A DNA stretch of 64,000 nucleotides, from assembly GCA_964291235.2 (NCBI GenBank), contig OZ219816.1, positions 1,792,001 to 1,856,000 on the forward strand, in the 5' to 3' direction. Below are positions 5,391 through 37,677 of this stretch, piece by piece. Each line of letters begins with the position of its first letter. The stretch's first letter is position 1. The notes below the pieces were generated by a model that was not told where the DNA came from, searched no databases, and was given only the letters and a program-made list of their open reading frames with translations. This DNA comes from Vicinamibacteria bacterium (GTDB lineage Bacteria; Acidobacteriota; Vicinamibacteria; Marinacidobacterales; Marinacidobacteraceae). The position numbers and the translations under genes are program-made.

Positions 5391-5795
5391 TCAGTAGGCC
5401 ACCGCCAGCCGGAAACGCGCGCCGGCGCGAACGGCGGCCGACAGGACGGTTTCCAGCTCGGTGAGTTCCGTGACCAGGGTGTCCTCCCCGGGAAAGCCCT
5501 CCGGGGCACCGGACACCGTGCCGAGGAGCGTCTGCACGAGCCGGAGCCCGACGCGGGAGTCAAACCACCCCGCCGGAGTAACCGCATCCACGTCCGTATC
5601 GAAATTGAGATCCGCGGCGAGGATCTCGGACTCCTCGGGGCTCATGCTGACGAACTCGTCGAGCGGCTGGAGTCCGGCCTCTTCGGCGACCTCCGACAGT
5701 TCCCAACGGGCCTGATTCAGTGCGTAGCCCTCGAAGTCCTCGGGGGTCACGCCCTCGACCTGGCGATCGAGGGCGACCGAAATGCCTACGCCCAA
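5391..5795 (-). CDS. Hypothetical protein
   Basis: Acidic 134-aa ORF filling the gap downstream of the DUF1684 gene; start codon uncertain. Confidence 0.6.
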   Translation of the reverse strand: MGVGISVALDRQVEGVTPEDFEGYALNQARWELSEVAEEAGLQPLDEFVSMSPEESEILAADLNFDTDVDAVTPAGWFDSRVGLRLVQTLLGTVSGAPEGFPGEDTLVTELTELETVLSAAVRAGARFRLAVAY

Positions 5796-6777: not shown

Positions 6778-7879
6778 CTAAGGGGCGGATCGGGCCGCGA
6801 GCGTCAGGCCGGCCTTGATGAACCCGTCGAGATCCCCGCTCATCACGCGCTCCACGTCCCCTACCTGGTGGTTCGTCCGATGGTCCTTCACCATCCGGTA
6901 CGGCTGGAACACGTAGGACCGGATCTGGTTCCCCCAGGTGTTGTCCCCCAGGCTTTCCTTCTGGGCTTCTTCCTGGGCCTTCCGCTCCCGCACCGCTCGG
7001 TCGTAAAGACGCGCGCGCAGCACCTTCATCGCGCTATCCCGGTTCCGGTGCTGGGAACGTTCGTTCTGGCAGGAAACGACGATCCCGGTGGGCAGGTGGG
7101 TGATGCGGACCGCCGAATCGGTGACGTTCACGTGCTGGCCACCCTTGCCGCTGGCCCGGAAGGTGTCGATCCGGAGATCGTTCTCGTCCACGTCGATCTC
7201 GATCTTGTCGTCGAGATCGGGGAAGGCGGCCACCGAGGCGAAGGACGTGTGGCGCCGGTGCTGCGTGTCGAACGGCGACATCCGCACCAATCGGTGGATT
7301 CCCGACTCCACCCGGAGCCGGCCGTAGGCGTGGTCGCCCCGGACCTCGAAGGTCGCTCCCTTGATACCGGCTTCCTCCCCCGGCTGCCGGTCGAGAAGTT
7401 GGATCTCGAATCCCCGGCCCCTGGCCCAGCGGATGTACATGCCGAGCAGCATTTCCGCCCAATCCTGGGCGTCGGTCCCCCCGGCCCCCGGGTTGATGGT
7501 CACGATGGCGTCCTCGGTGTCGTGTTCGCCCGCGAACAACCGCTGGAGTTCGAACTCGTTGAGCTGGCGTTCGAGACGGTCGAGGTGTTCCCGGAAATCG
7601 TCCGCGACGTCTTCGCCCTCGCGCACCCACTCGGCGAGCGTCTCGACTTCGTCCACGGCCCGAGCGAACGCGGCGCTCCGCTCCAACTCCGCGAGCACCC
7701 GCGCCCGGCGCCGCGAAAGCGCCTCGCCGTCGCCCGACGCCGACCAAACGGCAGGATCGCTCAGGCGACCGTCGAGATCCCCAAGCTCGTCCGTCAGAGC
7801 GTCCGGGTCAAAGAAACCCCCGGACCACCGCGGCGCGACTGCAAAGGGTCTCGTAGCGGTCGAGCAGTTCCTGACTCAT
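6778..7879 (-). CDS. prfB: Peptide chain release factor 2, programmed +1 frameshift (join 7879-7811, 7809-6778; about 366 aa)
   Basis: ATG at 7879 reads 23 codons to CGG GGG TTT CTT TGA C; the +1 frame continues DPDAL... into the ORF with SPF and GGQ motifs. Confidence 0.95.
7807..7822 (-). promoter_or_regulatory. prfB +1 frameshift signal (internal SD GGGGG + CTT TGA C)
   Basis: Minus strand reads GGGGGTTTCTTTGAC, the canonical RF2 autoregulatory site. Confidence 0.93.
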
Positions 7880-27833: not shown

Positions 27834-28397
27834 ATGACCCTCGTCCTCGATAACTACGACTCGTTTACCTTCAATTTGGTGCAGCTGCTCGGGGAACTGG
27901 GTGCGCGGCCCCGGGTCGTTCGGAACGATGCGATGACTCCGGCCGAGATCCGGGATCTGCGACCGGAGCGGGTGGTCATCTCTCCCGGACCCTGTTCGCC
28001 GGAAAAGGCGGGCATTTCCGTGGATCTCGTCCGGGAACTCGCCGGGAAGACCCCCCTGCTCGGGGTGTGCCTCGGCCACCAGTCCGTGGTTCAGGCCCTC
28101 GGTGGCCGGATCCGGCGGGCGCACCGCCTCGTCCACGGCAAGACCTCGCCGGTGCGCCATAATGGCGAAGAACTGTTCGCCGGGCTGGAGAACCCCTTCG
28201 AGGCCACCCGCTATCACTCGCTGGTCGCCGATGAGCCGCTGCCGAGAGAGCTTGAAGTGACCGCCCGCTCCGACGATCAGGAAGTCATGGGACTTCGACA
28301 CCGGAGCGCACCGCTCTGGGGTGTCCAGTTCCACCCCGAATCCATCCTCACCCCCGCGGGAAGACCACTGCTCCAGAACTTCCTCGACCTGACATGA
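27834..28397 (+). CDS. trpG: Anthranilate synthase component II (glutamine amidotransferase)
   Basis: '[10 protein letters not shown]', 'SPGP', 'GVCLGHQ', 'RYHSL', 'QFHPESILT'. Confidence 0.93.
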
Positions 28398-29467
28398 CGA
28401 CGCGCCCGCCCGAATCCACCTGCATGGTGCTCATCCTGAACCAATGGGCGACCGAGCAAGACATCAACCACCTGACCCGCCTGGTCGAGGAGAAGGCCCT
28501 CGAGTGGGCGCTTCACCCTGCCGAAGTGCGGAACCAGATTCACGTTCTCGGCGATCTCTCCCGGGAGACGGAAGCCTTCTGGCGCACGCAACCCGGCGTC
28601 CAGCAGGTGTATGGCCTGGCCAAGCCCTACAAGCTGGCCAACAAGACCCACCACCAGTCCAACACCCAGATCCCGATCGGCACCCAGCAGCTCGGCAGCA
28701 AGGATCTGGTCATCTTCGGGGGGCCCTGCGCGCTCGAGAGCGAGGAACAGGGCATGACCTCCGCCTTGATGCTCCAGGATCTCGGGCTCGAAATCATGCG
28801 GGCCTCGGCCTTCAAGCCGCGCAGCTCGCCCTATTCCTTCCAGGGTCTCGGAGTGGAGGGGCTCCACATCCTCAAGCGCATCCGGGAACGCACCGGCATC
28901 CTGGTCGAGACCGAGGTGATGGACGTCCGCGATGTCGAGGTCGCGGCGGACCTCGTGGACGTGATCCGGATCGGCGCCCGCAACATGCAGAACTTCGACC
29001 TTCTCAAGGAGGCGGGCCGCGTCCAGACCCCGGTCATCCTCAAGCGGGGCATGGCCAACACGATCCGGGAGTTCCTGTTGGCTACCGAATACATCCTGCA
29101 GGGGAACCCGAACGTGATCCTGTGCGAACGGGGTATCCGGTCGTTCGAGACGGCGTACCGCAACACGCTGGACGTAGGAGCCATCGCGGTACTGAAGCAG
29201 GAAACGCACCTGCCGGTCATCGCGGACCCGAGCCACAGCGCCGGCAACAAGACGCTGGTACCGGCGCTCTCGCTGGCCGCGGTCGCGGCCGGGGCAGACG
29301 GACTCCTGGTCGAGGTGCATCCCAACCCCTCGGTGGCGCTCAGCGACGGGGATCAGTCGCTCTACCCCCATCAGTTCATGAACCTGATGACGGATCTGCG
29401 AAGGGTCGGAAAGGCCGTCGGGCGGCGGTTACTGGCGGAACGGGCGACAAGCGCAGCGTCCCGATGA
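28394..29467 (+). CDS. aroF: DAHP synthase type I-beta with N-terminal regulatory domain
   Basis: 'GPCALES', '[14 protein letters not shown]', 'IGARNMQNF', 'LCERGIR', 'DPSH'. Confidence 0.92.
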
Positions 29468-30576
29468 CCGAGCGGGTCCCGGTCGAAACGCCGGGACGGA
29501 GCGCTTCCTACGAGATCGTCATCGGAGGCGCGGCGCTCGACGAACTGGCGTCGTTCCTCGGCACCCGCTTCGCCAAGCGCCGCGTCGCCGTGATCGGCGA
29601 CGCCGAAGCGCTGCGATACCACGGCGACCGGCTACGCGCCGGACTTCCACAAGATACCCCGGTTCTCGAGGTACCCCCCGGCGAAGCGTCGAAATCGCGA
29701 GCCGAAAAAATGCGCCTCGAGGACGAACTCCTCTCCCGCCGCCTGGGCCGCGACACGGTAGTCGTCGGATTCGGCGGCGGCGTCGTGACCGATCTCGCGG
29801 GGTTCGTGGCCGCGACCTACCTTCGCGGAGTGCCCTTTGTGGCGGTGCCGACCACGCTGCTCGCGGCAGTGGACGCTTCCGTGGGGGGCAAGACAGGGGT
29901 CAACACTCCGCACGGAAAGAACCTGATCGGAGTGTTCAGCCAGCCTGCCGCCGTCTTCGCGGACACCCGGTGTCTCGCAACCCTCTCCGAACCGGACTTC
30001 CTGAGCGGGGTCGCCGAGGCCCTCAAGATGGCCACCACCAGCGACGCGGAACTGTTCGCCGAGTTGGAAGGGGACACCCGAACCCTGCGAGCCCGGGATT
30101 CCGGCGCGCTGATCCGGCTCATCGCCGCGGCGGTCCGGATCAAGACGGCCGTCGTCGCCGCCGACGAACGGGAGAGCGGGTTGCGCGAGGTGCTCAACTT
30201 CGGCCACACCATCGGACACGGCCTCGAGCACGCGACGGATTACCGGCTGGCGCACGGCGCCGCGACCGCCATCGGCATGATCGCGGAGAGCCGGATGGCG
30301 CGGCGGGCAGGTGTTCTGGAACCCGAGGCCGAAGACCGTCTTCACTCCCTGATCGACGCCATCGGCCTGCCGAAACGAACGTCCGGCAAGGTGGAGCGCG
30401 CCCGCGTCCTGGCGGCACTCGGGAGCGACAAGAAGGCGCGCGGCGGCGAAGCGCGTTTCGTCATGCTCGAAGCCATCGGCCGCGTCAGGAACCGGGATGG
30501 CCGGGGCCGGACGGCGTATTCCTTCCCCCTGCCCGCGGGAGTTGTGGATTCGGGGCTCTCGGCGATCGGGCTTTGA
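29464..30576 (+). CDS. aroB: 3-dehydroquinate synthase
   Basis: 'GGGVVTDLAGF', 'PTTLLAAVDASVGGKTGVN', 'LNFGHTIGHGLE'; ATGA overlap with aroF. Confidence 0.94.
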   Translation: MTERVPVETPGRSASYEIVIGGAALDELASFLGTRFAKRRVAVIGDAEALRYHGDRLRAGLPQDTPVLEVPPGEASKSRAEKMRLEDELLSRRLGRDTVVVGFGGGVVTDLAGFVAATYLRGVPFVAVPTTLLAAVDASVGGKTGVNTPHGKNLIGVFSQPAAVFADTRCLATLSEPDFLSGVAEALKMATTSDAELFAELEGDTRTLRARDSGALIRLIAAAVRIKTAVVAADERESGLREVLNFGHTIGHGLEHATDYRLAHGAATAIGMIAESRMARRAGVLEPEAEDRLHSLIDAIGLPKRTSGKVERARVLAALGSDKKARGGEARFVMLEAIGRVRNRDGRGRTAYSFPLPAGVVDSGLSAIGL

Positions 30577-31907
30577 TCGAAATCGCCCCGGGGCCGGATG
30601 CTCCCTCCGCCTCGGTCCGGGTCCCCGGCAGCAAGTACGAGGCGAACCGGTTCCTGATCGCCGCCGCCCTCACCGACGGGACCACCCACCTCTCGGGCCT
30701 TCCGGAGGGGGAGGACATCCGGGCGGCCGTTTCGGCCGTAGGGGCGCTCGGCGCCCGCACCACGCGTCACGGGGCCGACCTCGAGGTGCGGGGTCCTCCG
30801 GATGCAAGTGGCGCGGCCGACACCGCTCCCGGCTCCGGGGACAGGACCGCGGTCTCGGTAGGCGAGTCAGGAACGCTGCTCCGCTTCCTGACGGCGGCGG
30901 CGGCCACCGTGCCGCAGACCGTCGCCATCGGCGGAACCGGAAGGATTCGAGAAAGGCCCATCGCGGACCTCGTGGCGGCGCTCGAGGCACTCGGCGCCGA
31001 CATCGGTACGACCCGGGGTTTCGCACCCCTCACGGTACGCTCCGGCCGGCTCAGCGGCGGGGAAGTACGGGTGGCCGCCACCCAAAGCAGCCAGTTCGCG
31101 AGCGCGCTGCTCCTTGCCGCCCCCCGCGCCGCCGGCGGGCTCTCCATCGTCTTGGAGAGCGATCCGGTGTCGGCTTCCTATCTCGACCTGACCGTCAGCG
31201 TGATGGCCCGCTGCGGGGTATCCGTCGAGCGGACCACGCCGCTCCGGTTCCGGGTGCGTCCGGGCGCCCGCTACCGACCCGGCGCACACCGGATTTCGGG
31301 GGACTGGACGACCGCGAGCTACTTCTTCGCCGCCGCCGCCATCGCGCCGGGGCGCGTCACGGTGGGCGGCCTCGATCCGGAATCTCCTCAGGGCGAACGA
31401 GGTTTCCCCGGGATCCTGAACCGGATGGGCTGCGGCGTGAAGGAGGAACGCTCGGAGGACGGCGTTCGGGTCACGGTCACCGGCGCCACGCGGCTCCGCG
31501 GGATCTCGGTTGATATGGGCTCGATGCCCGATGCCGCTCCCACGCTGGCGGCGATTGCGCCCTTCGCTGGGGAACCCACCCGTATTGGCGGGATCGGACA
31601 CCTGCGACACAAGGAGAGCGACCGGATCGCCGCCCTCGCCGACGGACTCCGCCGCCTCGGAGTCCGGGTATCTCCGGGGGAGGAGGGCCTTGCCATCGAG
31701 CCCCCGGGCGCGGATGACGCGTTTCGTCCGGGGCTCATAGACCCATACGGCGACCACCGGATCGCGATGGCGCTGGCGCTCACGGGGCTCCGGATTCCGG
31801 GAGTCCGGATCCGGACTCCGGACGTGGTCGGCAAGTCGTTCCCGGAGTTCTGGGACGCGTTGTCGGGACTCGGCGCGCGGGTGACCCGCCGGGAGGACGG
31901 GGCGTGA
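30573..31907 (+). CDS. aroA: EPSP synthase
   Basis: 'VPGSK..NR', 'SGT..RF', 'SSQFASALL', 'LRHKESDRI', 'DHRIAM', 'KSFPEFW'; TTGA overlap with aroB. Confidence 0.92.
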   Translation: MIEIAPGPDAPSASVRVPGSKYEANRFLIAAALTDGTTHLSGLPEGEDIRAAVSAVGALGARTTRHGADLEVRGPPDASGAADTAPGSGDRTAVSVGESGTLLRFLTAAAATVPQTVAIGGTGRIRERPIADLVAALEALGADIGTTRGFAPLTVRSGRLSGGEVRVAATQSSQFASALLLAAPRAAGGLSIVLESDPVSASYLDLTVSVMARCGVSVERTTPLRFRVRPGARYRPGAHRISGDWTTASYFFAAAAIAPGRVTVGGLDPESPQGERGFPGILNRMGCGVKEERSEDGVRVTVTGATRLRGISVDMGSMPDAAPTLAAIAPFAGEPTRIGGIGHLRHKESDRIAALADGLRRLGVRVSPGEEGLAIEPPGADDAFRPGLIDPYGDHRIAMALALTGLRIPGVRIRTPDVVGKSFPEFWDALSGLGARVTRREDGA

Positions 31908-34015
31908 CCGACGCCTTGCCCCCGGTAGGCCGGAGCGGCCGGAGTGCCGCCTTCCCCAATGTGGTGCTCATCGGCGCCCGGGCTTCGGGGAAGAGCCGGG
32001 CGTCCCGGAAGCTCGCCGAGCGGATCGGTTGGCCCCGGATCAGCACCGACGAGTTGCTGGAAGCCCGCCTTGGCCCGATCCCCGCATTCGTCGAGCGGTT
32101 CGGCTGGGACCGCTTCCGCGAGGAAGAAGCCGCGGTGCTTGCCGGAATTGCCGGCGAGCGCCTGGTGGTGGACTGCGGCGGGGGGATCGTGGAAACCCCG
32201 GAAAACATCCCCAGGCTGCGGGAACTGGGAACGGTCTATTGGGCGCGCGCGCCGGTGGCCGTCCTCAGGGAACGGCTCGCGCGACCGAAGCACCGCGCCG
32301 CCCGACCCCCGCTGCCGGGCATTCCACCGGAAGACGAGGCCGTCCTGGTCCTGGAGCGGCGGACGCCGCTCTACCGGGAAGCCGCCGTTTGCGATCTCTG
32401 GAGCACCGCTTCCAGCGGAGCCGATCAGGAGGAAGCGGTCGAGACCCTGCTGACCGCGCACTTTGGGCCCCGGCTCGCCCTCACCGTGGCCGGGGCAACG
32501 CCAGCGGCACTGCGCGCCGGTATCGATGCCGCCGCCGCCGAGGCCGGGCCGCTGGATCTCGTCGAACTGCGGCTCGACACTCTCGACGCGCCGGACCTCC
32601 CCGACGTGGAAGCGATTCTCGGCCGCCTGCCGAAGCCGCTCCTGGCGCGGCTGATCGCCACCGTACGCCGGCGGAGCGAAGGCGGGAACTTCGCGGGAAG
32701 CGAAAACGACCGGATCGGGCTTCTTGCCGAAGCCGGGCGTCAGGGCGCGGCGTACTGCGACCTCGAGTTCGAAGCGGATCGGGAAAGCGGCGGGGAGCAC
32801 GCCCGCCGCATCCGGGCGGCGGCCCCCTCGGTCCGCCTGGTGGCCTCCGTCCACGACCTGACCGGTGTTCCGGCGGGCCTCGAAGACCTGCCGGAGCGGA
32901 TGGCGACCATGCGACCGGCCCTCACCAAGGTGGCGGTCCAGGCCGGCGGATGGACGGACGTCCAGCGGGTGCAGGCCCTGATTCGGGATGAGGCCACCCG
33001 GAAGACGTCCATCATCGGGATCGCCATGGGGGCGACCGGGGCTCCACTCCGGGTAATCGCCGGAGCCTCGGGTGCGGCGCTTTCCACCTACGCCCCCCCG
33101 GAGGGGCTGCCCGCGGTGGCCGGCGGACAGCTCAGCGCGAAAGACATCCGCTCCCGGCATCGCCGCTGGGGGCGGCGGCTCCATGCCCTGGTTCCGGTGT
33201 ACGGGGTCATGGGCAACCCGATCCGCCAAAGCCTGAGTCCGCCGATGCACGAGGCCGCGTTCCGGCGCCTGGGCATCGAAGCCGCCTACCTTCCCTTCGA
33301 GGTCCCGCCCGCCGAACTGGCCGACTTTCTCCTCGCCGCCCGGCTCAGCGGGGTGGGCGGCCTCAACGTGACGATTCCCCTGAAGCGCGCCGTCCTCCCG
33401 TTGCTCGACGCCCTGGACGACGATGCGCGCCGGATCGGCGCGGTGAATACCATCATCCCGATGAACGGCGGATTCCTGGGAGCCAATACGGACTGGATCG
33501 GGGCGATCCGGTCGCTCGAGGAGGTCACCCCGCTGGCCGGCCGGCGGATTACCGTGCTGGGAGCGGGCGGATCGGCGCGCGCGGTGCTGCACGGGTTGGT
33601 CCGCTCCGGCGCGGAACCCGTGGTGGTGTCGCGCGACGACGGGAAAGCGGCGGCGCTTGCGGACGAAATGGGTGTCCGCCACGCCCCGTTGGCCTCCCTG
33701 GAGGGGGCCCAGGGCGACATTCTGGTAAATACCACCCCCGTGGGAATGGCGCCCCATGACGGAGATTGTCCGGCTCCTGACGCCGCCATCGCCGCTCACG
33801 AGGTGGTCTTCGACCTGGTGTTTCATCCCGAACAGACCGAACTCCTCCGGAAGGCGGCCGGGCTCGGCAAGCGGAACGTCTCCGGACTGCGCATGCTCAT
33901 CCTGCAAGCGGCCGCCGCGTTCGAACGCTGGACCGGCCGCCCCGCCCCGACCGAGGTCATGGCGGCCGCCGCCAGGAAGGCGAGCCAAACCAGGACGGCG
34001 AACCATGCCCGGTAG
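31904..34015 (+). CDS. Trifunctional shikimate kinase / type I 3-dehydroquinase / shikimate dehydrogenase (AroK-AroD-AroE fusion)
   Basis: Kinase '[10 protein letters not shown]','FREEE','CGGG','RTPLY'; DHQase 'VELRLD','TVRRRSEGG','SVHD','KVA','AMG','GQ'; dehydrogenase '[10 protein letters not shown]','NVTIPLK','GAVNT','NTD','GAGGSARA'. Confidence 0.9.
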
Positions 34016-35102
34016 CTCGATTGGCCAGGCGTTCCGGGTCACGACCTGGGGGGAGTCGCACGGACCCGCCATTGGAGTGGTGGTGGACGGCTGCCCGCCC
34101 CGGCTCCCGCTGAGCGAGGAAGATGTCCAGAAGGAACTCGACCGGCGGCGTCCCGGCCAGAGCGGGCTCACCACGCCGCGCCAGGAGGCGGATCGCGTCC
34201 TCATCCAGTCGGGGGTCCTCGCCGGCCAGACGACGGGCCATCCCATTGCGATGATGGTCCAAAATCGCGACGCCCGGCCCGCGGACTACGAGGCCCTCAA
34301 GACCGTCTATCGACCGAGTCACGCGGACTACACCTTCGAGACCAAATACGGCATCCGGGACCCCAGCGGCGGTGGGCGCTCGTCAGCGCGGGTGACGGTC
34401 GGGCACGTCGCCGCGGGAGCGGTTGCCCGGCGGTTTCTCGAGCAGCGTTTCGGCGTCGAATGCACGGCGTATGTCAAGCGCACGAAGGACATCGAGGCCG
34501 AGGTCGATCCGGAGCGAGTGACGCGGGCCGACGTGGAACGGACGCCGGTCCGCTGTCCGGACCCCGAAACCGCCACCCGCATGGTGGAGCTGATCGAGCG
34601 GACGCGGGACGCCCGGAATTCCATCGGCGGCGTGATCGAGTGCGCGGTGCGAGGCGTTCCCCCGGGACTCGGGGAGCCGGTCTTCGACAAGCTGGAAAGT
34701 GACCTCGCGAAGGCCATGCTCGCGATCAACGCCAGCAAGGGATTCGAGATTGGGTCCGGATTCGCCGGCACCCACCTCTTCGGGAGCCAGCACAACGACC
34801 GCTTCCTGATGAAGGACGGGCGGATGACGACCGAGACGAACCACGCCGGCGGCGTGCTGGGCGGTATCTCGACCGGGATGCCCATCGTCTTCCGGGTGGC
34901 GTTCAAACCCACTTCGACCATCGGGATGGCGCAGCGAACCGTGGACTCGGAGGGAAAGGAAGTCACCCTCGAAGCCAAGGGACGGCATGACCCCTGCGTC
35001 CTTCCCCGCGCCGTCCCGATCGTGGAGGCCATGGCGTGCCTGGTGCTGGCGGATCACGCCCTGCGGCAGGCGGCGATCAGCGGTCCGGACGCGAGCTTGT
35101 GA
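34005..35102 (+). CDS. aroC: Chorismate synthase
   Basis: 'TTWGESHG', 'RPSHAD', 'GGGRSSAR', 'GGISTG', 'GRHDPCV'. Confidence 0.96.
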
Positions 35103-35209
35103 CGGGGGCGGGGTCGGAGCCCCGGCCGCTGCCTCACCCGATCCGCCCGGGCCCGGGCCAACATGAGCGAAACAGTGTCAAGTTATACTTGAAGATAATC
35201 CAGCCACGG

Positions 35210-35285
35210 GGGCGGCTAGCTCAGCTGGGAGAGCGCGGCGTTCGCAATGCCGAGGTCACGGGTTCGATCCCCGTGCCGTCCACCA
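35210..35285 (+). tRNA. tRNA-Ala (anticodon CGC)
   Basis: Acceptor stem GGGCGGC/GCCGTCC with G3:U70, anticodon loop TTCGCAA, T arm GGTTCGATCC, encoded CCA; 76 nt. Confidence 0.96.
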
Positions 35286-35317
35286 CTGGAAGGAAAACCG
35301 CAGGGGGTAGCACGACG

Positions 35318-36037
35318 ATGCGACGAGGTGCTTCCGTTCGGGGCTGGGCCCTGCTGGCATCGTTCGTGGCGACTCTCCCCGCCGCCTCCGGAGAACCGGC
35401 TCCGCCCAGGCTCGCTCCCGATCCCGAGGCGGTCGCGCTCATCGAACGAGTCGAGGCCTACCACCAGTCACTGCCCCACTTCGAGGCGCGCTTCGAACAG
35501 CGCTTTTCGCCGCGTATCTTCGGGCGTGACCGGGTGGAGACCGGCCGCCTGACGGTCAAGCGGCCCGGCCGCATGCGTTGGGACTACGAGGCACCGGAAT
35601 CGAAGGCCTTCGTCAGCGACGGAAACAACACCTGGTTCCACGTGCCCGCCGACCAGCAGGTAGTGGTGGGCGCCTTCGGCGGTGACGGCCAGCGAGCCGA
35701 CGGGGAAGGCGGCGGGTTGAATCCGCTGGAGTTCCTGACCGGAGACGCCACGATCCTGGATCACTTCGATGCCCTGCTCGGGAACGAGGCGACGGCCGGA
35801 CTGCACACCGTCAGTCTGGTTCCCCGGCAGGCGAACGGAGAGATCACCTCCCTCTCGCTTACCGTGGACGCCGACAGCGGCCGCATCCAGGGGATCGAGT
35901 CCGAAGACCTCGAAGGGAACCGGACGACCTTCCGGTTCAGCGATTTCCGCTACGGGCCTCCTCCCGAGGACTCGCTGTTCACCTTCACCATCCCCCCGGG
36001 CACCGACGTGGTGACGGCGGCGGATCTGCGTCCGTGA
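35318..36037 (+). CDS. lolA: Outer-membrane lipoprotein carrier LolA
   Basis: Signal peptide; 'ARFEQ', 'GRLTVKRPGRMRWDY', 'FVSDG', 'FTFTIPPGTDV'. Confidence 0.88.
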   Translation: MRRGASVRGWALLASFVATLPAASGEPAPPRLAPDPEAVALIERVEAYHQSLPHFEARFEQRFSPRIFGRDRVETGRLTVKRPGRMRWDYEAPESKAFVSDGNNTWFHVPADQQVVVGAFGGDGQRADGEGGGLNPLEFLTGDATILDHFDALLGNEATAGLHTVSLVPRQANGEITSLSLTVDADSGRIQGIESEDLEGNRTTFRFSDFRYGPPPEDSLFTFTIPPGTDVVTAADLRP

Positions 36038-37677
36038 AACTCCTGGGGAGGGACCCGCGTGGGTTCCTGATCGCGTGCCTGCTGCTCGCCGCCGGCTGCG
36101 CCACCAGTCGTCATTTCACCGCCGGAGAGGCCGCGGAACGGCTCGGCCGCTACGACGACGCCGTGGCGCAGTATGCCCGGGCGGTCGCGGAGAATCCCTC
36201 CGACGCGGCGGCCCGGCTCTCGCTGACGCGGGTCAAGCTGCGCGCCGCCGAAGGCCACGCGCAGGCGGCGGAACGCCTCGCGGCGCTCAACGATTTCGCC
36301 GCGGCGGAGGACGCGCTCCGGGCGGCCATCATCCTGGCTCCCGGGGAAACGTCGTACCAGGAACGGCTGGCGGTCATTCAGGAGGCGGTCCAGGAGCAGG
36401 CCGACGAGACGCGGGCGCTGACCCTCGCCGAGTTGAAGGAGGAGGCCCTGACCCGGCCGCTGGGCCTCGACGTGCCGGAAGAAGCCCGCGCGCCGGCGAG
36501 TTTCGTGTTCCGGAACGCCAGCCTGCGCTACGTCCTCCTGACCCTCGGGGAAATCGCCGGCGTGAATGTCGCCTTCGACGAGGACTTCGTGGACCAGACG
36601 GTCTCCATCGAGGCGGAGGACTCGACTTTCGAGGACGCGATCCGCGGTCTGACCGAGACCACGGGACATTTCTTCCGTGTCGAGTCCCCACACCTGATCA
36701 CGATCGTGCCGGACACCCAGAACAAGCGCCTCCAGTACGAACAGCAGGTGGCGCAGACCTTCTATCTGTCCTCGGCGGACCTCACCCAGACCGCCGACAC
36801 GCTCCGCATCGTGCTGGGAATCCGCCAGATCGCCCAGCATGAGGGCACCAACTCGATCACGATGGTGGACACCTGGGAGCAGGTCCGCTCAGCGCAGCGC
36901 ATCATCGAAGCCCTGGACCGCAGTCCCGGCGAAGTGGTCGTGGATGTGGAGCTCATGGAGGTCAACCGGACCCACCTCGAGCAGTACGGCATTCCCCTGC
37001 TGTCGCCGGGGACCGATGGACAGGGAATCTCGGCCGCACTGACCCCGCGGCTGGACACCGTCCTCCAAAACCCCTACACCCGAGCGAACCTCCAGATCGC
37101 GGGCCTCCCGGGCGCCATCCTGAACCTGGTCCGCTCGGATACGGACACCCACGTACTGGCCAATCCGCAGCTTCGGGCGTCCGACGGCAAGCCGGCGCTT
37201 GCCGATTTCGGCGAACGCGTGCCGGTTCCGGTAACCACCTTCGCGCCGATTGCCACCGGCGGCCTCGCGCAACAGCCCACTACCACCTTCGAGTACGAGA
37301 ACGTGGGAGTCAGCATCGAGGTGCTCCCCCGGATCCACCACGACGACAGCGTGACCCTGGAAGTCAAGGTGCGCCTCGACAACGTGTCCGGCACCGGGTA
37401 TTCCGGCTTGCCGACCTTCGGGAACCGGAACGTGGAAACGACCCTGCGCCTGAGAAACGGCGAGACCAGCATGATCGCCGGCCTCATCCGTCAGGAAGAG
37501 CGAACCAGCCTGAGCGGGCTTCCCGGCATCGCCGACGTTCCGGTCATCGGGCGGCTGTTCGCCCAGAACTCCGACAACCTGACGGAGTCCGACATCATCC
37601 TGACGATCACCCCGAGGATTGCGCGGCGCGCGGATCTGGATCGGGAAACGCTCCTGCCCCACATCGTCCGAAGGTAG
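36034..37677 (+). CDS. Secretin (GspD/PilQ family) with lipoprotein signal and N-terminal TPR
   Basis: Lipobox 'LAAGC'; 'EVVVDVELMEV', 'VLANPQLRA', 'GERVPV', 'ETTLRLRNGET..IAGLI', 'PGIADVPVIGRLF', 'ITPRI'. Confidence 0.88.
   Translation: MKLLGRDPRGFLIACLLLAAGCATSRHFTAGEAAERLGRYDDAVAQYARAVAENPSDAAARLSLTRVKLRAAEGHAQAAERLAALNDFAAAEDALRAAIILAPGETSYQERLAVIQEAVQEQADETRALTLAELKEEALTRPLGLDVPEEARAPASFVFRNASLRYVLLTLGEIAGVNVAFDEDFVDQTVSIEAEDSTFEDAIRGLTETTGHFFRVESPHLITIVPDTQNKRLQYEQQVAQTFYLSSADLTQTADTLRIVLGIRQIAQHEGTNSITMVDTWEQVRSAQRIIEALDRSPGEVVVDVELMEVNRTHLEQYGIPLLSPGTDGQGISAALTPRLDTVLQNPYTRANLQIAGLPGAILNLVRSDTDTHVLANPQLRASDGKPALADFGERVPVPVTTFAPIATGGLAQQPTTTFEYENVGVSIEVLPRIHHDDSVTLEVKVRLDNVSGTGYSGLPTFGNRNVETTLRLRNGETSMIAGLIRQEERTSLSGLPGIADVPVIGRLFAQNSDNLTESDIILTITPRIARRADLDRETLLPHIVRR

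Follow-up and report, generated by a model that had tools for sequence, protein, structure and literature searches.

Gene content and order at the locus

This work deals with a run of genes for aromatic amino acid synthesis in a Vicinamibacteria bacterium (Acidobacteriota; Marinacidobacteraceae) and, in particular, with one gene of that run, aroK-aroD-aroE, in which three shikimate enzymes are fused. The run lies in a stretch of 64,000 nucleotides (assembly GCA_964291235.2, contig OZ219816.1, positions 1,792,001 to 1,856,000 of the forward strand), hereafter the window, whose numbering is used throughout. All seven shikimate-pathway steps are encoded there in one plus-strand gene run (Table 1). 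The letters A, B, C, D, E and K stand below for the corresponding Aro proteins, domains or genes, SK for shikimate kinase, DHQase for 3-dehydroquinate dehydratase, SDH for shikimate dehydrogenase, and DAHPS for DAHP synthase.

Table 1. Genes and protein domains of the trp-aro run, in window positions
Feature	Positions	Strand	Supporting match
trpE, anthranilate synthase component I, 496 aa	26139..27629	+	Pfam Chorismate_bind 314 bits, Anth_synt_I_N 128.6 bits
trpG, glutamine amidotransferase, 187 aa	27834..28397	+	Pfam GATase 190.4 bits
DAHP synthase, type I-beta, N-terminal ferredoxin-like (FXD) domain, 357 aa, step 1	28394..29467	+	NF006421 421.7 bits (cut-off 335)
aroB, 3-dehydroquinate synthase, 370 aa, step 2	29464..30576	+	TIGR01357 346.6 bits (cut-off 305)
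aroA, EPSP synthase, 444 aa, inferred TTG start, step 6	30573..31907	+	TIGR01356 371.1 bits (cut-off 287)
aroK-aroD-aroE fusion gene, 703 aa, inferred GTG start, steps 5, 3, 4	31904..34015	+	Pfam SKI, DHquinase_I, Shikimate_dh_N/SDH_C
Shikimate kinase domain, residues 26-169	31979..32410	+	Pfam SKI 89.7 bits (cut-off 22.1)
Type I 3-dehydroquinate dehydratase domain, residues 210-417	32531..33154	+	Pfam DHquinase_I 106 bits (cut-off 22.2)
Shikimate dehydrogenase domain, residues 435-691	33206..33976	+	TIGR00507 222.2 bits (cut-off 200.2)
aroC, chorismate synthase, 365 aa from ATG 34005, step 7	34005..35102	+	Pfam Chorismate_synt 465 bits
tRNA-Ala (CGC), end marker of the aro run	35210..35285	+	Rfam tRNA 59.1 bits; ARAGORN

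Five junctions of the run overlap: (i) trpG and DAHP synthase (ATGA, 28394); (ii) DAHP synthase and aroB (ATGA, 29464); (iii) aroB and aroA (TTGA, 30573-30576); (iv) aroA and the fusion gene (GTGA, 31904-31907); and (v) the fusion gene and aroC (11 nt, 34005-34015). Because the stop codons of genes overlap the start codons of their neighbours in this way, joint transcription and coupled translation are probable. Each of aroB, aroA and aroKDE has an open reading frame (ORF) of its own, and the three frames differ. Start codons are putative, and that of aroA lies in a frame open from 29970 on; an alternative GTG start of the fusion gene near 31961 would abolish the GTGA overlap and leave the fusion unchanged. 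Residues 1-14 of the fusion protein are weakly conserved and, in the AlphaFold2 model, predicted to be disordered.

The original prediction, made from the letters of the DNA, had placed at this site aroB, aroA and a 703-aa AroK-AroD(type I)-AroE polypeptide, joined by TTGA and GTGA overlaps. Its coordinates and domain content are borne out by the Pfam and NCBIfam profiles, and both overlaps are present in the sequence. The genes that it listed are thus right, but the extent of the cluster was drawn too short: trpE, trpG and DAHP synthase upstream, as well as aroC downstream, were left out.

The predicted trifunctional AroK-AroD-AroE protein

In an alignment of 33 K-D-E proteins, with identities down to 30%, the following residues (numbered as in the window protein) are invariant: (i) G29, K30, D49, R72, G92-G94 and R153 in the kinase domain; (ii) E221, R223, D225, R255, H317, K342 and R383 in the DHQase domain; and (iii) S443, S445, K494, N515, D530, G553, G555 and G556 in the SDH domain. 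We take these to include the Walker A motif, the shikimate-binding Asp and the GGG motif of the kinase, the catalytic H317 and the Schiff-base K342 of the DHQase, and the catalytic Lys and Asp and the nucleotide motif GAGG of the SDH. On the strength of these intact motifs, the 703-aa fusion is probably an active trifunctional enzyme. The type I DHQase domain would convert 3-dehydroquinate to dehydroshikimate, the SDH domain would reduce the latter to shikimate with NADPH, and the N-terminal kinase would phosphorylate shikimate, the resulting shikimate-3-phosphate being passed to the separate AroA. In the source genome (90.3% complete), which has one SKI domain, neither a second shikimate kinase, nor a second type I DHQase, nor a type II DHQase, nor a second match to the whole fusion protein was found.

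Within the chain, a type I DHQase followed directly by an SDH is the architecture of the bifunctional AroD-AroE enzymes of plants, Planctomycetes, Acidobacteria and some archaea, which corresponds to residues ~190-700 of the window protein. The latter differs from them in its additional N-terminal kinase and, with a score of 145.8, falls short of the cut-off (598) of NF006802, the NCBIfam equivalog for the bifunctional enzyme. Its best sequence match in the PDB is the plant DHQ-SDH enzyme (Arabidopsis 2gpt, 203 bits); the predicted D-E geometry only partly matches that of the plant enzyme (TMt 0.53, rmsd 9.2 A).

A long polypeptide of this kind might have been produced by an assembly or sequencing error, or by a wrong gene call joining two or three separate genes. 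The G+C content of the surrounding window is 66-72%, and at such values long open frames arise by chance, which is a general risk only. Against an artefact, all three domains lie within one uninterrupted frame, and the AlphaFold2 model (pLDDT 91.7, pTM 0.91) is confident across the domain junctions. Furthermore, among 24 further genomes of this family, 23 (from 7 genera and including several single-contig assemblies) have full-length K-D-E in the same frame, and the single miss is a genome 66% complete; all three Pfam families are present in 69 of the 120 protein clusters listed, at 50-100% identity and counting the window's own; and per-domain tblastn matches are contiguous in one frame at 11/11 loci. 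The objection of a read-level error, raised with the original prediction, is thus answered, and the artefact is effectively refuted, its residual probability being negligible.

A further alternative is that the fusion serves quinate/shikimate catabolism or a branch of secondary metabolism, and not the core synthesis of aromatic amino acids. Type I DHQases and SDH paralogues are catabolic in some organisms, and the DHQase domain of the window protein scores below the equivalog cut-off of TIGR01093 (77.5 versus 139.3 bits). This low score, together with a Pfam match that begins only at profile position 17 of the family, weighs against our assignment of the domain; the kinase, for its part, scores 104 bits with the NCBIfam AroL model, under a cut-off of 161. 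Nevertheless, the fusion gene is flanked by aroA and aroC, with DAHPS, aroB and the adjacent trpEG upstream, it holds the sole kinase and the sole dehydroquinase found in the genome, and its SDH domain passes the aroE equivalog model. A catabolic role is, in consequence, very improbable.

Distribution in the window family and in Acidobacteriota

Hereafter, "window family" refers to the acidobacterial family of the source genome and "native" to other Acidobacteria, outside the "DPANN-type" loci described in the next section. The complete order trpE-trpG-DAHPS-aroB-aroA-KDE-aroC is kept in all 11 window-family loci fetched, trpE standing at the same position in each. Among the protein clusters listed, one K-D-E cluster is named "Acidobacteria bacterium".

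Outside the family, 15 of 16 genomes of the same order (two sister families; the count includes the unpublished genome G233) have D-E without the kinase, the match beginning at about residue 170-217, and in the 16th (73% complete) a separate kinase was the sole match. Of 200 further genomes sampled from the phylum (including the unpublished G152, G049 and G024), 175 had a match; among the matches listed, which omit 65 weaker ones, most span about residues 190-690 and none has a kinase part joined to D-E. An aroD-aroE fusion is likewise reported for 88 Acidobacteria assemblies in the accessible portion of PMC11237513. No other aro gene lies within 7 kb of the D-E gene in six same-order loci, and in three same-class loci the D-E gene adjoins trpE-trpG. 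The gene aroK lies directly behind aroA in all five same-order or same-class genomes checked. The K-D-E fusion is therefore lineage-specific, being found in one family nested among relatives that have D-E only.

Long frames (up to 1436 aa; 1150 aa in genome G246) had suggested a further, A-K-D-E, tetrafusion within the window family. They turned out to be chance open frames in G+C-rich DNA: in G222 and G246 aroA and the fusion gene are in different frames, and in G224 (locus L018, about 7077-7090) one TGA interrupts the frame that they share. No A-K-D-E fusion of the family emerged from the long frames read (G222, G224 and G246).

Some side observations concern the same proteins. The AroA of G222 (L012, frame 2, about 5600-5750) has some five tandem 7-residue units rich in Ala, Thr and Glu inserted in its N-terminal half, the rest being intact. 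Three genomes of the same class (G086, G241 and G028; L124-L126) have a second AroA type, 43-44% identical to that of the window and off the main acidobacterial AroA clade; the AroA of L126 is nearest to the AROM rows by path length. Two entries deposited under the sponge Geodia barretti (P0075 and P0330, on a 351-kb contig) match parts of the window protein at 86-87% identity; they comprise a 197-aa "shikimate kinase" and a 627-aa "chorismate synthase" in which SDH and AroC are joined. The contig appears to be that of a symbiont within the sponge assembly, on which a eukaryotic gene caller cut the gene models.

The same gene order in other prokaryotes

An exhaustive profile search was run over 1.84 billion representatives and the best 150 matches were examined. 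Further K-D-E proteins were found at 31-36% identity, two of them named Candidatus Woesearchaeota, together with two AroA-K-D-E tetrafusions of 1086 and 1071 aa. With the tetrafusions as queries, 79 genome loci were obtained, and the seven enzymes were mapped on the first 45. Among these, the order DAHPS-aroB-aroA-K-D-E-aroC is present in 12 complete and 4 contig-truncated loci, whose record titles name Nanoarchaeia/Nanoarchaeota, Woesearchaeota, "uncultured Methanosarcinales archaeon", "archaeon", "uncultured bacterium" and Neomarinimicrobiota. For these DPANN-type loci, naming is the depositors' own and derives from the binning of metagenome-assembled genomes (MAGs); the shikimate genes of the archaea-labelled MAGs are of bacterial type.

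The fusions found in DPANN-type loci are the following: (i) A-K-D-E in one frame in six loci (L031-L036; e.g., L031:6001-9273, 1090 aa); (ii) AroB-AroA in two Woesearchaeota loci (L037:4777-7512, 911 aa; L051:4777-7365, 862 aa), followed in each by K-D-E (L037:7528-9873, 781 aa; L051:7362-9533, 723 aa); (iii) K-D-E in two other loci; and (iv) D-E with a separate K in five. The window K-D-E is therefore not the most AROM-like prokaryotic form, as A-K-D-E and B-A plus K-D-E are closer to AROM in architecture. A prokaryote-type pentafusion was found neither among the best 150 matches of the 1.84 billion representatives (longest match 1167 aa) nor among 57 longer matches.

The DPANN-type clusters resemble the window in the order DAHPS(FXD)-aroB-aroA-K-D-E-aroC and in having trp genes upstream; for instance, in L031 the upstream genes are trpC, trpB and trpA and the downstream ones chorismate mutase/prephenate dehydrogenase and prephenate dehydratase. 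They differ in that they come from AT-rich MAGs, mostly labelled as archaea, and in that fusion is further advanced. The window proteins are not uniformly close to either group: (i) AroA scores 279-372 bits against DPANN-type proteins versus 110-137 against native Acidobacteria; (ii) SK, 80-121 versus 52-62 bits; while (iii) SDH is 41-45% identical to native acidobacterial D-E versus 33-37% to DPANN-type proteins. Such scores fit a mosaic origin of the operon.

Other gene orders were present in the same fetch, namely B-D-E-K-A (Dehalococcoidales, Muiribacteriota), D-E-A-K (Thermodesulfobacteriota), A-K-B-D-E (Waddliaceae) and B-A-C with E elsewhere (Bacillota). As in the window, neighbouring aro genes of other bacteria tend to fuse (AroE-AroK, AroK-AroB, D-E-K, D-E-A-K), and the proteins fetched included 47 E-K, 22 D-E-K, one D-E-A-K and one K-B fusion. 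In those fusions, however, the kinase follows the dehydrogenase or precedes the 3-dehydroquinate synthase (DHQS), whereas in the window protein it precedes the dehydratase.

The fusions reported in the accessible part of PMC11237513 are D-E and E-K only, and the available portions of PMC9885046, PMC9394408 and PMC3018139 make no mention of prokaryotic AROM-like forms. No paper on K-D-E, A-K-D-E or B-A fusions, or on this operon order, in prokaryotes was found in a literature search that covered subscription journals thinly, and novelty is unproven.

Comparison with AROM

In AROM (Aro1/AroM), the pentafunctional polypeptide known from fungi and protists, the five activities DHQS, EPSP synthase, SK, type I DHQase and SDH follow one another in the same linear order as in the window. 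The order B, A, K-D-E anticipated by the original prediction was confirmed by domain profiles in 48 AROM proteins, and in 54 of 57 matches AROM is colinear, at 26-31% identity, with 92-98% of the length of the window protein. The operon is, as had also been claimed, formally two junction changes away from a single frame. Nevertheless, AROM holds all five activities on one polypeptide, whereas the window has three polypeptides in a bacterial setting, where DAHPS and aroC flank the run. Furthermore, the window SDH fails the AROM-type model TIGR01809 (138.4 versus a cut-off of 196) and passes the standard aroE model TIGR00507. The window AroA is class I-like and, judged by chain scores, nearer to the plant and E. 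coli enzymes (210-250 bits) than to AROM (6hqv, 177) or CP4 (93).

Regarding structure, AROM forms a dimer through DHQS and DHQase. In a Foldseek search, the fusion protein matches AROM 6hqv best (E 1e-38). When the monomer model is superposed on AROM 6hqv, on Candida Aro1 (7u5s) or on the SK-DHQase-DHSD fragment 7tbv, TMq is 0.32-0.35 and the rmsd about 22 A. Thus, the folds match those of AROM but the predicted arrangement of the domains does not. This mismatch is soft evidence because the regions of AROM are known to be mobile, as stated in excerpts of PMC9074039. According to the same excerpts, AroM of C. thermophilum shows no gain in throughput over its isolated domains and, hence, channeling is not to be assumed for the window enzymes. 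The original prediction also proposed that the three proteins may form an AROM-like complex; a modelling of AroB plus AroA with alignments (score 0.00) bears neither for nor against binding.

Phylogenetic position of AROM and of the window family

Two readings of the shared order have to be weighed here: a fusion within the window family that runs parallel to AROM, and descent of AROM from a prokaryotic B-A-K-D-E operon that was acquired and fused by an early eukaryote, in which case the acidobacterial and DPANN-type clusters would be relatives of the donor and the order would be inherited. We regard such descent as unlikely, although it has points in its favour: AROM (48 proteins), the window family and 16 DPANN-type loci share one order, which is not that of the pathway; the intermediate states B-A plus K-D-E and B plus A-K-D-E exist; and the B-A / K-D-E split matches two regions of Candida Aro1 as described in the excerpts of PMC9074039.

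Per-domain phylogenies, which had been proposed as a check, were built, and they separated AROM as a clade of its own; the accompanying approximately unbiased (AU) tests are weak and leave some partitions unrejected. AROM is monophyletic (support 99-100) and separate from the window family in the D-E, AroA, AroB and concatenated trees. In the D-E trees (FastTree with 177 rows; mixture-model quick tree with 69), a long stem leads to the AROM clade (100), which lies outside the rest, the window family forms its own clade (100) inside a 26-row set (96) that holds most acidobacterial D-E, and the DPANN-type proteins form a separate clade (99). For AroA, the window family is sister to the DPANN-type proteins (FastTree 97; SH-aLRT 93.2, and 98.1 once 17 acidobacterial AroA of the same class had been added, of which 14 group in a distant clade). 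Placement in the AroB trees is ambiguous; a split in the 57-row AroB set (SH-aLRT 95.5), which joins AROM, the window family, six DPANN-type rows, one bacterial same-order row and two other bacterial rows, counts in favour of descent. So does the kinase, for which AROM, the DPANN-type proteins and the window family lie on one side of a branch with support 96 (FastTree, 28 rows; mixture-model quick tree, 37 rows).

When the five domains were concatenated (32 taxa, 1440 columns, LG+C20 PMSF), the window family grouped with the DPANN-type loci (97) and AROM with P0322 (99). After five native Acidobacteria had been added under the same model, the window family grouped with the natives (90), and the group of AROM with P0322 still stood apart (99). 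In both mixture-model trees AROM is cut off from the window family by a branch with SH-aLRT 99, and between AROM and the B-A-K-D-E clusters come bacteria that have other gene orders, which, like the grouping of AROM with P0322, speaks against descent.

P0322 itself (1167 aa, D-E-A-K) is the nearest neighbour of AROM in both concatenated trees, stands near AROM in the AroA and D-E trees as well, and has a domain order that is a circular permutation of A-K-D-E. Two K-E-E proteins of 916-924 aa (P0230 and P0292; from a dinoflagellate and a labyrinthulid), with a kinase and two SDH-type regions, are nested in the AROM kinase clade and are likely derived AROM remnants.

The AU tests were run in IQ-TREE under LG+F+G4 with -fast searches, partly as a series (the 35-row series) comprising AroB (35 rows), AroA, SK, D-E and the five-domain concatenation. 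A grouping of the window family with AROM was rejected for AroA (p-AU 0.0085, 35-row series) and for AroB in the 57-row set (0.030). A clade of AROM, the window family and the DPANN-type loci fared as follows: in the 35-row series it was rejected or borderline (AroB 0.045, AroA 0.108, SK 0.098, D-E 0.015, all five domains 0.031); in the analysis with 40 AroB rows it was rejected for AroA (0.003) and AroB (0.017); and in a separate test of the concatenation it was rejected at 0.04, where AROM with the DPANN-type loci alone was rejected at 2e-8. For the concatenation in the 35-row series, the p-AU values were 0.94 for the window family with the DPANN-type loci, 0.15 with the natives and 0.075 with AROM. 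For SK, the window family with the natives gave 0.036, and this domain leans towards the DPANN-type loci.

Several results weigh against a parallel origin and, in part, count in favour of descent. The grouping of the window family with AROM is unrejected for D-E (p-AU 0.55 in one test, 0.087 in the 35-row series), for AroB with 35 rows (0.58), for SK (0.22, 35-row series) and for the concatenation (0.062 in the separate test, in addition to the value of the series given above). In the 40-row AroB set, the tree constrained to join the two even has the best likelihood (p-AU 0.76), and the free tree joins them too (SH-aLRT 54.9). Moreover, the kinase branch described above has the three groups on one side. 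The origin of the operon is likewise split, since AroA and SK lean towards the DPANN-type loci and D-E and AroB towards native Acidobacteria, and the concatenated placement shifts according to whether the natives are included. The phylogenetic signal is weak and model-dependent. Wherever the checks of a treekit tree were printed, composition bias was flagged; the AROM sample consists mostly of fungal sequences, the sampling of outgroups is narrow, and that of stand-alone AroK and AroD is thin (19 matches in the shorter-protein search). As we read the trees, AROM is not the neighbour of the window family, and it is never so under the mixture model.

Origin of the fusion

We consider it probable that the locus is a working operon of the family and that K-D-E was fused within the window family, parallel to AROM and not as its parent. 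According to this proposal, (i) an old aroA-aroK pair and an old aroD-aroE fusion gene would have been brought together in the ancestor of the window family; and (ii) aroK, lying behind aroA, would have been joined to the front of the already fused aroD-aroE. The match with the AROM order would then reflect the reuse of two old pairs (A-K and D-E) together with an operon layout found in DPANN-labelled and Marinimicrobia MAGs, and within that B-A-K-D-E layout neighbours would have fused repeatedly (D-E, K-D-E, A-K-D-E, B-A). It is also plausible that the layout was inherited in common with the DPANN-type cluster.

The coincidence of order is smaller than it may seem. The chance of one given order of five genes is 1 in 120. 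With A-K and D-E pre-existing, however, no more than six block orders are possible; B, A-K, D-E is one of them, and others do occur; therefore, independent arrival at the AROM order is plausible, which takes weight from the argument that the order must have been inherited.

The original prediction had offered two possibilities, a bacterial precursor of AROM or a convergent intermediate. The former is not supported, given that the fusion is confined to one family, AROM forms a separate clade, the SDH fails TIGR01809 and the predicted geometry differs. The latter fits better, with the reservation that AU tests under a simple model leave a grouping of the family with AROM unrejected in several partitions. 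The survey of architecture and synteny proposed at the same time places K-D-E, among the acidobacterial matches listed, in the window family only, while the same order also occurs in DPANN-type and a few bacterial MAGs. Parallel fusion is thus the more likely explanation, ahead of AROM ancestry.

Surroundings of the operon

In the DAHP synthase, Pfam DAHP_synth_1 scores 252.3 bits and DAHP_snth_FXD 24.5 bits, the latter under its cut-off of 27. Promoter and terminator scans gave no signal above shuffled sequence, and the tRNA was the sole match of the Rfam scan. The G+C content is 0.715-0.718 over aroA and the fusion gene (30001-34000) versus 0.662-0.668 from trpE to aroB; similar values at 40-46 kb make this unexceptional. 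Downstream, a long ORF (35036-36037) overlaps, on the same strand, the tRNA-Ala gene; its residues 148-318 match a LolA domain, and the true start of this lolA-like gene must, given the overlap, lie downstream of the tRNA. It is followed by a secretin with TPR repeats (36034-37677).

Significance

Why the five enzymes of AROM were fused, and why in a non-pathway order, are open questions. Prokaryotes carry the AROM order as an operon, with the intermediate fusion states D-E, K-D-E, A-K-D-E and B-A plus K-D-E. It is conceivable, though we rather doubt it, that the non-pathway order of AROM was inherited from such an operon, with K-D-E in Acidobacteria, A-K-D-E in Nanoarchaeia and B-A plus K-D-E in Woesearchaeota showing the stepwise route of fusion, or else, if all three cases are independent, that the order is under selection. 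In any case, these forms provide natural material for testing (i) the effects of fusion on flux, stability and stoichiometry; (ii) whether the B-A and K-D-E modules are natural units; and (iii) by phylogeny, the origin of AROM from such an operon.

Taken alone, the window gives a modest result, namely a shikimate enzyme that is specific to one family, probably trifunctional, and encoded in a compact aromatic operon. The wider pattern is more interesting: an AROM-colinear prokaryotic operon with a ladder of fusions between neighbours, strongest in the DPANN-type loci.

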